A DNA stretch of 64,000 nt, taken from assembly GCA_963666975.2 (NCBI GenBank), contig CAXVYR010000003.1:640001-704000 (forward strand). The letters run 5' to 3'. The DNA is from Terriglobia bacterium. Lineage in GTDB: Bacteria > Acidobacteriota > Terriglobia > 2-12-FULL-54-10. Both the position numbers and the translations under genes were made by a program. This document shows positions 36,670-62,430 of the stretch, in pieces (position 1 is the first letter of the stretch; every line of letters begins with the position of its first letter). The notes under the pieces were generated by a model. It saw only the letters and a program-made list of their open reading frames with translations. It had not been told where the DNA came from and searched no databases.

Positions 36670-37257
36670 ATGAAACTGGACTTCTTGGGCGACGCTTTCG
36701 ACCACTGGAAAGGGTCTCTGATTGAGTCCCTAAGCAAAGCGCACATCCTTCGGAATTTCGCCGTGGACCTGATGGTTACCGACGGGGACTGGCGAAATGA
36801 GGACTTCCAGCTCTATGCTCGGCTGCTACGCGTTGCACAAGGCCAACTCCTCGAACATCGAGTAACCCTTACTGAACGGGAGAAGTATTTCAACGAAATC
36901 CAGCATCCTGGCGATCTTTTCCTTGATTCGGACACCGGTGTCGCGACCGGGACCGCGAAAAAGCAGCATGTCAAAGCCTGTGAGATCGGGCAACTGCTCG
37001 ACCGAGGGCCGAGCGACCGTCTCTTAGTGATCTATCAGGCTGTGCGGGGGAAAGTTGAACCACGTGTCAAAGAGGTGGTGAATGCTCTCAAGAAACCCAA
37101 TGTAGTTCTTACCGGATGCTCCTACGAATCCAACACGGCTGCCATGTTATTCCTTTCGCGGATAGCAACACGGTCCGATCAAGTTGCAGATCATTTCGAC
37201 GCTCTTCTCAAACCACGCGCTGGGAACAGGATTAGAAGGTTCCCGGGTGACCAATAG
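36670..37257 (+). CDS. Hypothetical protein
   Basis: GAGGAG RBS; FLGDAFDHWKG and DLFLDSDTG motifs. Confidence 0.7.
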   Translation: MKLDFLGDAFDHWKGSLIESLSKAHILRNFAVDLMVTDGDWRNEDFQLYARLLRVAQGQLLEHRVTLTEREKYFNEIQHPGDLFLDSDTGVATGTAKKQHVKACEIGQLLDRGPSDRLLVIYQAVRGKVEPRVKEVVNALKKPNVVLTGCSYESNTAAMLFLSRIATRSDQVADHFDALLKPRAGNRIRRFPGDQ

Positions 37258-37330
37258 CAGTTGTGGCTAGCTTGTCGCCGGACTCATCTTCTCAAAACGG
37301 CAGCCGCAGCGCGAAGGGCCGCGCTGCGCC

Positions 37331-37555
37331 TCAAAGCAGGCTCAGAAATTCCTCGCCGGTCATCCCGGCATGTCGGATGAGCGCGCGAAGTGTCCCCACA
37401 GAAAGTTCCTTGTGCTGGGGAACCGGCTTGTCCCGAGCGAAGTCGAGGGGAAGGTTTACCCGGATTCCCGGCTTGACCATCACCAGATGACTCCCCACCT
37501 GCCCCAAGGCCCGCCATCCGGCCTTCTGGAAAGCCTTTGCCGCTTCCTTTATGGT
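37331..37555 (-). pseudogene. hicA: HicA toxin relic, 5'-truncated, with in-frame 24-nt insertion
   Basis: KEAAKAFQKAGWRALGQVGSHLVMVKPGIRVNL[PLDFARDK]PVPQHKELSVGTLRALIRHAGMTGEEFLSLL*; no N-terminal start codon. Confidence 0.8.
37426..37449 (-). repeat. 24-nt mini-insertion element CCCTCGACTTCGCTCGGGACAAGC
   Basis: Matches the two nested copies at 46484-46531. Confidence 0.8.
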
Positions 37556-37620
37556 GAGCCTGCCGGCCTTGAGTCGGCAAGGCCGCTGGCATAAAATCTA
37601 AGGCCAAGCAACAATTAATC

Positions 37621-38946
37621 CCGCATTTCCAGTTTGAAATCGTAGAAGCAACCTTCTGCTAACCTCCAACGTCAATATTGATGCTGGTTCGAGCAGCAAC
37701 ATTCCCTTCCGGAGGTTCACACCGAATGGGTGAGAGACAAAATCAGCCATTTCAACTCACTTTTAATGCCTCGTTGAAGGTCGCTTTCCACGGATCGAGG
37801 GTCACCTCCAACGGAGGGTTGATTCTGGTGCGGGAGTTGGACGAACGATTGGGATTCGGTGAACTCATCAAGCAGCACCTAGCCGATCCTCGGGGGAAGA
37901 ACACACGGTTGCCCCTCGCGGACCTGCTACGGCAGTCGGTGTACAGTCGCTTGGCTGGATACGAGGATGTGAACGATGCCGAGCAACTCTCACGAGATCC
38001 GACCTTCCGGCTGATCGGTTCCGAGAAGAATTGGGATCGAGGGGCAGCAGAAGCTGTGCAAGGAAGTGGTGTTTCGTGCCGACGCGGCCTTTGCCAAGCC
38101 GGAGGTTTACGAAGCGTTGGAGGAGCGGGGTGTGAAGTATGCCATCCGCATCCCTTCCAACGAGAACCTCCAGCGGGACATCGAGGAGTTGCTGAAACTT
38201 CCGGTAGGAAGGCCGGGCCAGAAGCCGTTGGTGGAGTACAAGGGGTTTCTGTACCAAGCCGAGAGTTGGAAGACGGCCCGACGGGTGGTAGCCAAGGTAG
38301 AACATCATCCGGGGGAGTTGTTCCCGCGAGTGGGGTTCATTGTGACGAATCTGACGCTTCCGAGTCGAGCGGTGGTGCGGTTCTATAATAAGCGCGGGAC
38401 GGCAGAGCAGTGGATCAAGGAGGGCAAGCAGGCAGTGAAGATGACGCGGCTCAGTTGCCATCGGTTCCGCTCCAACGAGGTACGGCTGTGGCTGACCATC
38501 ATTGCCTATAGTCTGGGAAATCTTTGGCGGCGGCTGGTGGTGCCACAGAGAATCGGGAACTGGTCCTTGACGAGCCTCCAGCAGCGGCTGGTGAAAACCG
38601 GAGGACGCCTGATTAAGCATGCCCGCTACTATTGGCTATTGCTGCAGAGAGCCATCTGACGAGACGTTTATTTGCTAGCATGCTGGGGCGAATAGATGGG
38701 CTGTCGCTTCCGTCGGGATAGCCCAGCCTGCGGCGCACCCAAGAAAATGATTCCGATATCCCCCAGGCATGGAGAGGTGTCTGCAAAAGCTGGTTCTGGA
38801 AGCCGAGGCGATGGGTTTTGGGGACTCGGAAAGAGCGGCTGGAAGCCGCTGGCAGTATCTCGGAGAAAATATTTGTCTGGAAGGGCTCAGTTGAAGGCCA
38901 ACGGATGTATACTCACGAGTCGGATGGGCCAAAAAACTAATTCCGG
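37621..38946 (+). mobile_element. IS1380-family element with internally deleted, frameshifted transposase
   Basis: VTSNGGLILVRELDERLG, AGYEDVND, FRADAAF, FYNKRGTAEQWIKEGK; junction near 38043-38049. Confidence 0.85.
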
Positions 38947-39193
38947 CTAATGACCGTCTGATTGAATGTACAAAAGCCATCTACCTGGGATGGCGAAAAA
39001 AGGAAGCCGGAGTTGCTGATTTGGGGGATACCAACTCAGAGGCTTCGGCTTTCTTGTTTCCCGAAAACCCCGGCTGTTTATGAGCTGCCCGTCCGGAGGC
39101 AACTCTGAGCTTGACCCTCCAGGGAAGCAAGGGTATGTTTTTGACTAAGGCGGGAATTCAAACCGGAAAATCCGGGCAAGAGGAGGGGTCACA

Positions 39194-39508
39194 ATGAAAA
39201 TTTCCATTGTTATGGCGGCGGTTGTATTTACGTGCGCGCTGGGTTTCGGACTTCGCGCCCAAGCTCAGCAGGACGCGCCGAGGGAGCACAGCATGACCGG
39301 GTGCCTGCAGAAGGGCACCGACGGCAATCCGTTCAGGCTTACGGACCTCGAGAGAGGACCTAGCCCGGTGGATATCGCGGAGACGACAGCTAACATGAAT
39401 CCCCACGTCGGCCACAAGGTCACGATCACCGGCACGGCCGTCCCCGACAAGGAGACTCACACGATGAAGGTGACGGCGATGCAGCACGTCTCAGCAACGT
39501 GCCCATAG
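39194..39508 (+). CDS. Small secreted protein with a probable disulfide (OB-fold-like)
   Basis: AGGAGG RBS, signal peptide, TGCLQKG...HVGHKVTITG...SATCP. Confidence 0.8.
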   Translation: MKISIVMAAVVFTCALGFGLRAQAQQDAPREHSMTGCLQKGTDGNPFRLTDLERGPSPVDIAETTANMNPHVGHKVTITGTAVPDKETHTMKVTAMQHVSATCP

Positions 39509-40132
39509 GCTTGACTGTCGGGAGTCTTTTGTTCCTCTGTCTACATGTGCGTGAAGTCTCAAGAAAAGACTCCCGTTCGGTGATTCCGGTCTCCAGATCG
39601 AGCCTAGCAACCTGCTCAACCCTTCCCCATGTGTCGCCAGAAATACCCAGGGTTTCACCAATGGCATCTTCTGAACGGGTAGCGGTCTGCCGCGGCGTTG
39701 GTGCATGAATCGCCTTGACCCTTCCGGCGCTTCGAGCCGGCTTCGGTGAAGCGTGAGAGGTCGCGGCTGACAAACTAACTATATCTCACATAATCATAGT
39801 CTTACTAGAAAACTGCTATCCGCCGACCCCTTTTCGGTTAGCGGGCCACAGGCATGGTCTGGGCGTGTTTCGAGGTGCGATTGACTATTCATGCACCAAA
39901 GCTGCGACGAGGGGGAAAAGAACGTCAGTAGTCGGATGTCTGTCGGAACGCTGGCGCTCCACACCGGATTGTGGCCTTCGCCGGTGATCCCGCCGCCCAC
40001 TTCATCAGCGCCACGAACAGAGCGCAAGCCCATTAATATGACAACTTCCAAGGGGAAAAGATTGAAGGCCATCGGAGTTGCTCATGTGCTAACGGCCGAG
40101 GGGGAAGAAAACATCTCTGTAAGGAGGGCCCA

Positions 40133-44185: not shown

Positions 44186-44337
44186 AACCGGTCTCAAAAA
44201 TGGCCATTTTCTGTTAACCGTCAGGGCACGGCTTCAGCCGTGCCGTAAAAAGCCTTGAAAAACAGGGGCTTCAGCCCCTGAGGTAACTTTCGTTTTTGCC
44301 AATTGCGTCATTCCGCGCATTTTTGAGACCAGTTCTA
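44183..44337. mobile_element. MITE-like element carrying two REP-like hairpins
   Basis: 20-bp TIR TAGAAC(C/T)GGTCTCAAAAATG (19/20); internal GGCACGGC-TTCA-GCCGTGCC and CAGGGGC-TTCA-GCCCCTG. Confidence 0.78.
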
Positions 44338-45820: not shown

Positions 45821-46017
45821 CTCCCCGTTATCTTTCCGCATAACCCCCTGTGCCCCCAAGAACAGGGTGCATCGTTAGTTTCGGTCATAGTTTCTGCCAT
45901 CGTTCGGTTTCAGACGCAAGGAACCGAGGAGCCATTCGATCACCGGGAACCGGCTTGTTGAAAATGGCAGGAACGCTGGCGCAGGTTTTTCCTCTGCGGC
46001 GGATTGAATTCAAAAAA

Positions 46018-46386
46018 ATGATGCAGCAATCGCATGGCGAAATTGACCAAAGGCGGTTCCACCGCTATGGTGTAAATTTCCCCTGCACGGTCAGGCCGGT
46101 GCGCAAGCGCAAAGGCTCCAAACCCCATGTGTTAACTGCAACGGCAATCGAAGCCGAGACAAAAGACGTGAGTACCGGGGGCTTCTACTTTGAGGTATCC
46201 GCCGACTGGAAGGTTGGAACGGAAATTGAGTGCACGATTCGTCTGCCGGTCAAGGCCTTCGGGGGACAGCCCGTAGCGATTCGCTGCCGCGGCAAGATCG
46301 CACGCGTTACAAAAAAAGACCCTGGAAGCATCGGCGTGGGGGCAACGATCGAACAGTTCGAGTTCCAGCATCTGGAAAAGAAGTGA
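46018..46386 (+). CDS. PilZ domain protein
   Basis: DQRRFHRY, DVSTGG, IRCRGKIARV. Confidence 0.85.
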   Translation: MMQQSHGEIDQRRFHRYGVNFPCTVRPVRKRKGSKPHVLTATAIEAETKDVSTGGFYFEVSADWKVGTEIECTIRLPVKAFGGQPVAIRCRGKIARVTKKDPGSIGVGATIEQFEFQHLEKK

Positions 46387-46442
46387 CGGCAGCCGGCCCC
46401 GCCGATTCCCTCTTCCAAACATCCGAACATCAATCGGACCTG

Positions 46443-46564
46443 AGAGGTTGTTGGAAAACTGGTGTATGGGTCCGCTTGCTAACCCCTCGGTTTCGCTCCC
46501 TTCGACTTCGCTCAGGACAGGCGGGACAGGCGCGCGCGGCTCGGATGGTTTTCACACAGGCTCT
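46443..46564. repeat. Composite repeat: imperfect TIR pair enclosing a REP hairpin interrupted by two nested 24-nt elements
   Basis: TIR 13/17; CCGCTTGCTAAC[CCCTCGGTTTCGCTC{CCTTCGACTTCGCTCAGGACAGGC}GGGACAGGC]GCGCGCGGCTCGG. Confidence 0.75.
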
Positions 46565-46707
46565 GGAGCCGTCCGGCACAGAACGTCCCTCCCAAAATAC
46601 GCTGCCGCAGAGATTCCTCGTCTCTAAATCTGCTATGATTAGCGAACATTATTTCTTAAAATCGTTTCTTGAAAATTGTTTTTTGAAAAAGGAATCTTGG
46701 AAAAAAT

Positions 46708-47346
46708 ATGCGAGTTGCCGCAACAGAAACGTCAACATCCAGGACTTCGATCAATTCACTCTCGCCCATCAACTGTCTTTTAGGATTTACGGTTCTTTTG
46801 AGCGCCCTATGGATTCTGCCGGCCGCCCTGCTTGCTCAGGCATCCAACGGGCAAGGCACGCGGGTAGCATTAGGCTCCGTTTCCGGCGTTGCTAAAAGCC
46901 AGGTGATGGTCCCGCTGTACCTGACCCCTGATCCTCCGGATATCAAGGTGGGCAGCATATCAGCCGCTATTGGGTTTGAAACCAAAGCGGTGACTTTTCT
47001 AAAAGCGGAAGAAGGGTTCTTGCTCGATGGCGTCAACGCCGGCTTTGAGGCCGATCTTCAGCAGAATGCCGATGATCCCAACAAATCTATTCTGCTTTTG
47101 GAGGTTGCCACCGAAGGGGACGAGCGCAAGGCTTTGCGGGAAGGCCTGATCCTTTCGCTGATCTTTCGCGTAAATGATGACGCCCCGGAAGGAACGGTGG
47201 TCTCACTGGCTTTTGAGCAACTCGGAGCCAAGAACATCGAGGCTCCGCCCTCCGCGATTGAACCGCTATCCAGCCAAGATGGGACCATCGAGGTGATCCT
47301 GGAAGATGCGCTCCCCTATGTGGGTTGTTTTTTCTTTACGCATTAA
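46708..47346 (+). CDS. Exported cohesin-like beta-sandwich protein ending in CFFFTH
   Basis: Signal-like hydrophobic N-region, V-x-VP-L-x-L, alternating beta pattern, G..LxLxFRV, C-terminal GTI; fold call by eye only. Confidence 0.65.
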   Translation: MRVAATETSTSRTSINSLSPINCLLGFTVLLSALWILPAALLAQASNGQGTRVALGSVSGVAKSQVMVPLYLTPDPPDIKVGSISAAIGFETKAVTFLKAEEGFLLDGVNAGFEADLQQNADDPNKSILLLEVATEGDERKALREGLILSLIFRVNDDAPEGTVVSLAFEQLGAKNIEAPPSAIEPLSSQDGTIEVILEDALPYVGCFFFTH

Positions 47347-62400: not shown

Positions 62401-62430
62401 AGCAGGTCCTTCGCTTCGCTCAGGATGACA
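62401..62430 (+). repeat. REP-like repeat AGCAGGTCCTTCGCTTCGCTCAGGATGACA
   Basis: Intergenic; shares the CCTTCG..CTTCGCTCAGGA core with the 24-nt elements. Confidence 0.6.

Follow-up and report, generated by a model that had tools for sequence, protein, structure and literature searches.

A discrete 24-nt hairpin module inserted in repeats, in genes and in itself in a Terriglobia genome

A 24-nt hairpin sequence behaves as a discrete module in the genome of a Terriglobia bacterium: its insertion points are fixed, its host sites exist in filled and empty form, a base pair is maintained in its stem, and the same sequence is spread across phyla. With moderate confidence, this unit is interpreted here as a self-contained, non-autonomous hairpin insertion module, probably served by a small GIY-YIG nuclease. 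The initial annotation of the DNA analysed (a stretch of 64,000 nt, hereafter the window, corresponding to C3:640001-704000 of a genome of 4.23 Mb in 4 contigs with 58% G+C) proposed a mobile unit probably moved by an HUH/RAYT-like or another hairpin-recognising enzyme. The discrete 24-nt module inserted into repeats, itself and genes is supported by the present analysis, but the RAYT/HUH mover is not.

Two nested copies of the unit lie in an intergenic region of the window, with an ORF for a PilZ-domain protein on one side (45850-46386) and an ORF for a cohesin-domain protein on the other (46708-47346). These copies and their surroundings, the copy in hicA and a related hairpin are the following.

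46439..46546, + strand: whole intergenic repeat that includes REP1 and both units; without the latter it measures about 60 nt
46472..46483, + strand: left arm of REP1 (host hairpin repeat), CCGCTTGCTAAC
46484..46498, + strand: 5' 15 nt of the outer unit (stem arm CCC and 12-nt loop), restored to its unit after excising 46499-46522
46499..46522, + strand: inner 24-nt unit of the CCT...AGG type, CCTTCGACTTCGCTCAGGACAGGC, found with the weight matrix in excision round 1
46523..46531, + strand: 3' 9 nt of the outer unit, GGGACAGGC, found by stepwise excision
46532..46544, + strand: right arm of REP1 (host hairpin repeat), GCGCGCGGCTCGG
37426..37449, - strand: 24-nt unit of the CCC...GGG type, in frame in hicA, encoding the peptide PLDFARDK
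37331..37597, - strand: hicA reading frame (HicA_toxin, Pfam PF07927, E 8e-7)
62401..62430, + strand: REP5-type hairpin, stem TCCT/AGGA, loop TCGCTTCGCTC, sister of the 24-nt unit

Excision of 46499-46522 joins 46484-46498 to 46523-46531 and restores CCCTCGGTTTCGCTCGGGACAGGC, the outer unit, which the inner one splits between unit positions 15 and 16. When CCCTCGGTTTCGCTCGGGACAGGC is excised in turn, CCGCTTGCTAAC abuts GCGCGCGGCTCGG and REP1 is obtained, a repeat with 66 uninterrupted copies in the genome. The letters and coordinates first given for the nested units (46484-46531) are confirmed in the sequence, as is the location of the third copy (37426-37449), in frame within the HicA_toxin ORF. 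The hairpin at 62401-62430, which had been taken for a longer relative of the unit, is indeed related, but it is a distinct hairpin repeat, REP5, and itself a host of the unit. The REP1-containing repeat at 46439..46546 (query positions 590-697) matches about ten further loci of the genome with 77-92% identity, and in the orthologous flank of G002, a genome of the same genus, divergence begins at about position 46441. Also, two further short hairpin repeats, GGCACGGC-TTCA-GCCGTGCC and AGGGGC-TTCA-GCCCCT, are observed in the window at 44221-44290, and repeats of these kinds recur in the flanks of unit loci in other genomes and, translated, in the ribonucleotide-reductase linker described below.

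Many further copies of the consensus exist in this genome. Two matches are found in the window, against none in 100 shuffles, and the whole genome holds 10 exact matches and 88 matches if up to 3 mismatches are allowed. From those 88 sequences a weight matrix was derived, which detects 113 contiguous units at a threshold of at least 14 bits, whereas a single one is detected in a shuffled genome. Moreover, when every matching 24-mer is cut out and the sequence is scanned again, the census rises to about 166 units (112 contiguous, 45 recovered after one excision and 9 after two), for a chance expectation of 1. All 54 restored units are split at one of two places, 15|16 (40 units) or 12|13 (14 units), they are interrupted by exactly 24 or 48 nt, and the orientation of the inner unit is that of the outer unit in 54 of 54 nestings. 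Among these nestings, 38 distinct combinations of outer and inner subtype are present, the commonest of them 8 times.

The arrays can also be described as strings of tokens, A being the 15-mer and B the 9-mer. Of 91 arrays, 47 read AB, 13 AABB and 7 AAABBB, while 20 have unequal numbers of halves (AABBB 6, ABB 6, AAABB 4, AAB 2 and ABBB 2) and the order BA appears in 4. Therefore, deletion or slippage acts on the arrays too. A longer element ending in the 15-nt and 9-nt halves was considered and ruled out, because solitary 15-nt halves are so few (12 orphans versus 6 expected by chance) that the 24-mer does not represent the two ends of something larger. On a separate matter of assembly, the 8.7-kb contig C1 (at 7538) repeats a unit-bearing stretch of C3 (at 767990) letter for letter in the flanks shown, and it may be an unresolved assembly duplicate of that stretch.

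The outermost units, which occupy 112 loci, are mainly located within five families of short hairpin repeats, whose copies were counted after excision with up to 3 mismatches.

REP1: 82 copies, 16 filled and 66 empty; the insert is always after nt 12
REP2: 134 copies, 15 filled and 119 empty
REP3: 44 copies, 7 filled and 37 empty
REP4: 17 copies, 2 filled and 15 empty
REP5: 39 copies, 9 filled and 30 empty

Together, the five families comprise 49 filled and 267 empty copies. The inserts measure only 24, 48 or 72 nt and enter each family at one or two fixed positions; REP2 accommodates the unit in both orientations. Identical three-layer stacks are present within REP1 at several loci. These recurrent composites, together with the 38 distinct subtype pairs, indicate that both repeated insertion and passive, host-borne multiplication took place. 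A search for clean empty orthologous sites in the same-genus genomes G001 and G002 found none; the intergenic DNA is unalignable, and the synteny blocks with these two genomes stop at the repeat clusters.

On the strand as written, three base pairs (CCY/RGG) form the stem of the unit, its loop TCGRCTTCGCTC has 12 nt, and the 6-nt tail RCARGC comes after the stem. Read on the other strand, the unit shows a tag, GCYTGY, then the stem, a pair of G-A mismatches, the GC-GAA-GC mini-hairpin and finally the closing stem; the loop on this strand includes GCGAAGC in units with G at position 7, such as the outer one of the window. This heptamer fits the GCGNAGC form, which the available text of PMC13037366 describes as an extraordinarily stable DNA mini-hairpin. 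The terminal inverted repeats that characterize a MITE are absent from the unit, its ends CCYTCG and CARGC not being inverted copies of each other, and no Rfam family matches it.

The co-variation of pyrimidine and purine positions seen in the first copies corresponds to a real base pair. In 80 loci from other genomes, collected with a search pattern that permitted all four 3:16 combinations, these two positions are T:A in 66 cases and C:G in 14, with nothing else, hence 80 of 80 pair; positions 7, 19 and 22 vary independently in the same set. In the present genome, 89 of the 94 contiguous units maintain the 3:16 pair; so do 46 of 54 split units, in which the outer halves pair with each other.

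Regarding the insertion site, the unit had been said to lie always after a C, and this has to be amended to a pyrimidine. The base at -1 is C in 50, T in 40 and A in 1 of 91 outermost units of this genome (pyrimidine in 90/91), and C in 67, T in 12 and A in 1 of the 80 loci of other genomes (pyrimidine in 79/80). The base just 3' of the unit is T in 50 of the 80 foreign loci. Target duplication amounts to at most 1 ambiguous base, in agreement with the upper limit of one nucleotide originally given. If the rejoined flanks are folded, the junction falls within a predicted hairpin loop at 61 of 112 loci, compared with 459 of 1500 random sites, and when the junction is moved a few bases 3' it falls in a stem; for the other genomes the excess is slight (33/80 versus 56/160). 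A strict rule demanding a perfect stem at the junction was rejected, as stems of at least 4 bp are found at 6% of the loci and at 15% of random sites. Because the excess is moderate to slight and stems are not enriched, the preference for loops is no more than a tendency, most evident in the repeat hosts and in the loop of the unit itself, and a hairpin-loop target rule is only moderately supported by these predicted folds. The orientation of the unit relative to GC skew is weakly biased (about 42 versus 27).

Insertion in genes can be followed most precisely in hicA. The 8 inserted residues are precisely those missing from all 12 aligned HicA homologues (71-79% identity, lengths of 72-79 aa), which show RVNL-S[IV]PQHKEL where the window protein has RVNL-PLDFARDK-PVPQHKEL. 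In the open frame of the window hicA, no start codon (ATG, GTG or TTG) precedes residue 31, and the gene may be decaying. A second verified coding copy is present in a class II ribonucleotide reductase (C3:225624-228632), where the peptide LSRAKPR is located in a hypervariable linker between the barrel and the TSCPD domains. In total, 99 stop-free frames span unit loci, and 21 of them were sent to Pfam, these being 20 of the 25 distinct frames of at least 180 aa and one of the three frames of the hicA locus (not the HicA frame). Among these 21, the unit is found between domains only in the ribonucleotide reductase; in an amidohydrolase frame it is upstream of the domain. Coding insertion of the unit is therefore rare, with 2 verified cases at 112 loci. 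The unit is stop-free in 5 or 6 of its 6 frames, and the frame is preserved because 24 equals 8x3 and the sequence is nearly free of stops. Thus, of the proposal of a frame-preserving element, the existence of in-frame copies (hicA and ribonucleotide reductase) stands, but there is no enrichment in coding sequences.

The presence of both window insertions is supported by independent data. Contigs from 4 runs belonging to 4 studies span 37001-37613 and 46453-47000 without differences, and neither a 24-nt skip nor a polymorphism is detected at the two window loci in the contigs of these four runs. Since independent runs carry both loci unchanged, the insertions are not an assembly artefact. In the same region, just upstream of hicA, the window contains a multi-copy insertion sequence of 2418 bp (37614-40031) with a frameshifted DDE_Tnp_1_4 transposase. 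Contigs of four runs pass from 37613 straight into 40032 (with long flanks in X23 and X24, and 30 nt in X19 and X20), and this insertion sequence is therefore polymorphic. Another transposable element of the genome is of the IS256 family (C3:2850-4500, Transposase_mut in two frames), with a length of about 1.45 kb and roughly 60 copies.

Beyond this genome, the unit (with up to 1 mismatch) is present in 30 of 301 sampled genomes of the phylum, in a patchy distribution and with copy counts of up to 60, 34, 31 and 26, whereas the reversed-pattern control gives 0. A scan for the exact pattern, with one genome per species, returned at least 124 stretches. Among the matches listed, the exact 24-mer is found in more than 15 phyla, most of the matches being from Acidobacteriota, and the others include Planctomycetia, Binatia, Dormibacterota, Alphaproteobacteria, Verrucomicrobia, Patescibacteria, Eremiobacterota, Chloroflexi, Nitrospira, Kiritimatiellae, Gemmatimonadales, Bacteroidota, Fibrobacter, a Trichormus cyanobacterium, Desulfuromonadales, Omnitrophota and Methylococcaceae; most of these records are metagenome bins and some assignments may be wrong. 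An isolate with the exact unit is Edaphobacter aggregans DSM 19364. The foreign loci share the 24-mer alone, with unrelated and sometimes AT-rich flanks, and at some of them (L041 and L096) tandem copies of the unit are observed.

Copies with 92-96% identity over 24-26 nt are also found on plasmids of Trichlorobacter, Methylomonas, Sphingomonas, Planktothrix and Pseudanabaena; no match to the unit was obtained for Nostoc plasmids in the plasmid search, nor in a phage collection. In the Trichlorobacter lovleyi plasmid pIAE1 (L193 2501-2526), a unit-like 26-mer forms, in frame, part of the C-terminal tail of a transposase gene. This transposase is of the IS91 family (Y2_Tnp) and its gene adjoins qacEdelta1 and sul1; in all, 6 places of this sort exist on the plasmid.

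These features suggest a mechanism in which a whole copy of the unit would be placed directly 3' of a pyrimidine, with a target duplication of no more than 1 ambiguous base. The targets would mostly be regions in which single-stranded DNA is expected, i.e. the loops of hairpin repeats and the unit's own loop, and the Russian-doll arrays would arise because this own loop is among the targets. Some composites were later multiplied together with their host repeat. As for the enzyme, a small GIY-YIG nuclease would bind single-stranded DNA at the hairpin and cleave it a few bases from there, and new copies would result from the rejoining of single strands cut next to such hairpins, or from their repair with the help of another copy.

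This enzymatic step is modelled on SsnA, a 94-aa single-domain GIY-YIG protein that, according to the available text of Chenal 2025 (PMC11893778), is often framed by its own repeat, binds this hairpin repeat only as single-stranded DNA and cuts a few bases upstream; in the same text, Ssn enzymes are shown to cut and not to insert. The genome studied here has two small stand-alone GIY-YIG genes, an intact one of 108 aa (C3:816853-817179) and a truncated one of 67 aa. The protein scores 53.9 bits with Pfam GIY-YIG, has no match in NCBIfam and is related to the UPF0213 structure 1zg2 in the PDB (E 5e-6). The intact gene is framed by inverted REP5-type hairpins, one of which contains its stop codon, and the truncated copy has REP5 on both sides, carrying variants of the unit 105 and 33 nt from the ORF. 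REP5, with its stem TCCT/AGGA, has as loop TCGCTTCGCTC, which is the loop of the unit. Its inverted arrangement around a small single-domain GIY-YIG gene resembles NTS-ssnA-NTS. The GIY-YIG enzymes, named only as an alternative in the initial annotation, are a better lead than RAYT/HUH, with sister hairpins framing both genes here.

Comparison with other genomes extends this association in part. At 7 of 18 small GIY-YIG loci, in 5 of the 10 source genomes, the gene has a REP5-type hairpin or a unit no more than 350 nt away. For example, in G226, which is free of the unit, ten REP5-type hairpins with the loop TCGACTTCGCTC, the exact 12-nt loop of the unit, are spaced by exactly 100 nt (L201 1219-2675), three of them before and seven after a small GIY-YIG gene. 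Against the link, the protein family does not discriminate between unit-rich genomes (present in 5 of 5, with 1, 1, 6, 4 and 3 copies) and unit-free ones (4 of 5, with 1, 1, 1, 1 and 0). Three CPR genomes and one alphaproteobacterial genome that hold the unit have 4-9 small GIY-YIG gene copies each; neither a unit nor a REP5 hairpin is found beside 8 of these genes, and the protein has no match in the cyanobacterium tested. In G325-G327, genomes of 0.9-1.7 Mb labelled Curtissbacteria/Patescibacteria, 6-9 matches to the small GIY-YIG protein are observed, with up to about 50% identity to the acidobacterial protein. Also against the link, the published SRM pattern, HGTCWYN(0-2)YYVSBRHN(0-5)WNVSBRGN(0-2)RNCYNB, fits neither the unit nor REP5 and is not enriched in this genome (33 matches versus 52 in a shuffle). 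From the whole of these comparisons, the recognising protein would most likely be a small stand-alone GIY-YIG nuclease of the Ssn kind, and the unit may be a compact relative of the tag-plus-hairpin repeats that such nucleases recognise. In the supplementary table entries of PMC11893778, Terriglobus tenax has columns marked YES and no SRM enrichment; if the GIY-YIG link is true, the missing cognate repeat would be supplied for the acidobacterial Ssn-like nucleases.

A Y1 enzyme is another possible mover, although we consider it unlikely that a Y1 HUH transposase, either a RAYT or a relative of IS200/IS605, cuts single-stranded DNA after C or a pyrimidine on both sides and pastes the hairpin. 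The genome does contain three Y1_Tnp genes. One of them is a true RAYT (NF047646, 114 bits; C3 at about 1355321-1355976, L002 1302-1957), but it is framed by 40-nt GTAG-tagged inverted repeats as in a classic REP-RAYT unit, which is unrelated to the 24-mer. The other two are divergent genes below the NCBIfam cut-offs (L003 1360-1955 and L004 1408-1995), and each lies between inverted copies of REP2, which is the commonest among the host repeats; these flanking copies are, however, empty. The chemistry would be compatible with such an enzyme, in that no duplication is produced, entry is 3' of C or T and the unit ends in C, so that one guide could read both cuts; moreover, T follows the unit in 50 of 80 foreign loci and, according to the available text of PMC3479197, the cut made by TnpA-REP of E. 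coli falls between C and T. Nonetheless, the unit has no fixed tetranucleotide target, a single hairpin instead of two and no GTAG tag, and its strand bias is weak. Y1 genes are more numerous in unit-rich genomes (9, 8, 10, 6 and 1) than in unit-free ones (3, 2, 4, 0 and 4), being present in 5 of 5 and 4 of 5, respectively. Yet the surroundings of 9 Y1 genes from 6 genomes (the three of this genome and six in five unit-rich genomes) are free of the unit to a distance of 1.5 kb. Also, a search at a threshold of E 1e-5 detects no homologue of the REP2-linked Y1 protein in the 5 unit-rich genomes, and the protein is not found across 10 other genomes. These data argue against the RAYT/HUH mobiliser first proposed.

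Alternatively, the unit would hardly move, and a few old insertions in REP loops would have been multiplied passively as the host REPs spread. The recurrence of layered composites (one pair 8 times, and the identical three-layer REP1 stacks) and the inclusion of the window host in a longer repeat of about ten copies are what such a process would leave behind. We regard it as distinctly improbable as a complete account, since five unrelated host families are filled, each at its own fixed positions, the 54 nestings comprise 38 distinct pairs of subtypes, solo copies are present in hicA and in the ribonucleotide-reductase linker, and 80 foreign loci have the 24-mer in common and not the flanks.

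Repair or gene conversion, in which hairpins would be cut (e.g. by SbcCD) and mended from a filled copy of the same host repeat, is in our view very improbable as the origin of the copies. Most copies do lie within repeats that offer flanking homology, and the arrays with unequal halves indicate that recombination or slippage does act, but first arrivals at non-homologous sites, such as hicA or foreign phyla, are left unexplained, and so is the letter-for-letter identity across phyla. Finally, the absence of any insertion, the arrays being half-unit slippage duplications or the unit a selected regulatory or RNA motif that arises repeatedly, is hardly credible: arrays do consist of runs of 15-mers followed by runs of 9-mers, and tandem copies exist in other genomes, but the pairing of partner bases follows the nesting (outer with outer, 46/54), equal half counts dominate (AB, AABB and AAABBB in 47, 13 and 7 of 91), Rfam gives no match, and convergence cannot yield 24 identical letters in AT-rich genomes, in genes and within the unit itself.

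Considering the insertion module in relation to described systems, its closest kind is that of Elhai's cyanobacterial small dispersed repeats. Reportedly, the repeats SDR1-8, described in 2008 by Elhai and co-workers in Nostoc punctiforme and relatives, measure 21-27 nt and have nested copies. Both SDRs and the unit are very short dispersed modules with no known mobiliser, and they are likened here by description and not by sequence. The unit, with 24 nt and 166 copies, falls within the size range reported for SDRs and shares their abundance, their nesting and their exact placement at a constant point in targets that are palindromic or repeated. For instance, SDR5 inserts precisely between the 3rd and 4th base of HIP1, a palindromic target, according to the available text of PMC4390886. 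However, SDRs are described for heterocyst-forming cyanobacteria, whereas the 24-mer is distributed, among the matches listed, over more than 15 phyla.

A second group with a broadly similar architecture is that of the CGTC/TGTC-tagged REPs, which include dRS3/NTS of Neisseria and RPE-4/-6 of Rickettsia (Di Nocera 2013, PMC3733652). In the available text of that work, these repeats have no transposase, REPs are seen inserted within small palindromes, and a CGTC-tagged REP consists of a CGTC, TGTC or CCTC tag, a stem of 8-9 bp starting with A-T pairs and a loop of 4-5 nt. The unit, these REPs and the Ssn-related motifs have in common an oriented succession of tag and hairpin, no attached transposase and some copies inside genes, and the unit and REP5 have the same architecture. 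A TGTC-like tag is present on half of the units, those of the GGGAC subtype only. Unlike the CGTC REPs, the unit has a 3-bp outer stem without leading A-T pairs, and its core is the GC-GAA-GC mini-hairpin (a GAA triloop) with G-A mismatches, instead of an 8-9-bp stem and a 4-5-nt loop. The loop strings of the unit are absent from the 10 text supplementary files of PMC11893778, and the available text of that article does not describe discrete self-nesting for Ssn-related motifs.

Other systems are further apart. REPs or REPINs with their RAYT are, like the unit, short, high-copy intergenic hairpin repeats, and a RAYT system exists in the same genome, but the unit has no GTAG tag, forms no doublets and does not flank any of the 9 Y1 genes examined; in this genome it is the REPs that host the unit. 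Miniature elements of IS200/IS605 have two subterminal hairpins and a fixed tetra- or pentanucleotide target, while the unit has one hairpin and requires only a pyrimidine at -1, and MITEs have terminal inverted repeats and a duplication of several bases, neither of which is observed here. The available text of PMC3184786 deals with the palindromic elements of Rickettsia and with further repeats that are fused to genes in frame, of about 100-150 nt. The unit resembles them in that it encodes stop-free peptides at tolerant sites (the HicA loop and the ribonucleotide-reductase linker) and differs from them in its 24 nt and in the exceptional character of its coding copies (2/112 loci). A literature text search with the 24-mer and four peptides (two of the unit and two of a related repeat) retrieved no published description.

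Elements of this size challenge the need for two ends and a dedicated nearby transposase. The near-identity of the unit from Acidobacteriota to CPR and cyanobacteria points to either a conserved, widespread enzyme or frequent transfer across phyla. In practical terms, because of the units, annotations acquire spurious ORFs and peptides (LRLRSGQA, for instance) and short-read assemblies are broken, and the filled and empty sites offer a substrate for an assay, in which the unit would serve as donor, the REP1 loop in its empty form as target, and two classes of enzymes as candidates. More tentatively, the 24-mer and its sister hairpins could represent a pan-bacterial class of minimal mobile DNA, served by GIY-YIG nucleases of the Ssn type, crossing phyla and entering any exposed single-stranded loop after a pyrimidine. 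If this broader reading is true, these would be among the smallest mobile elements known, and Ssn nucleases would gain a role in the dispersal of repeats.
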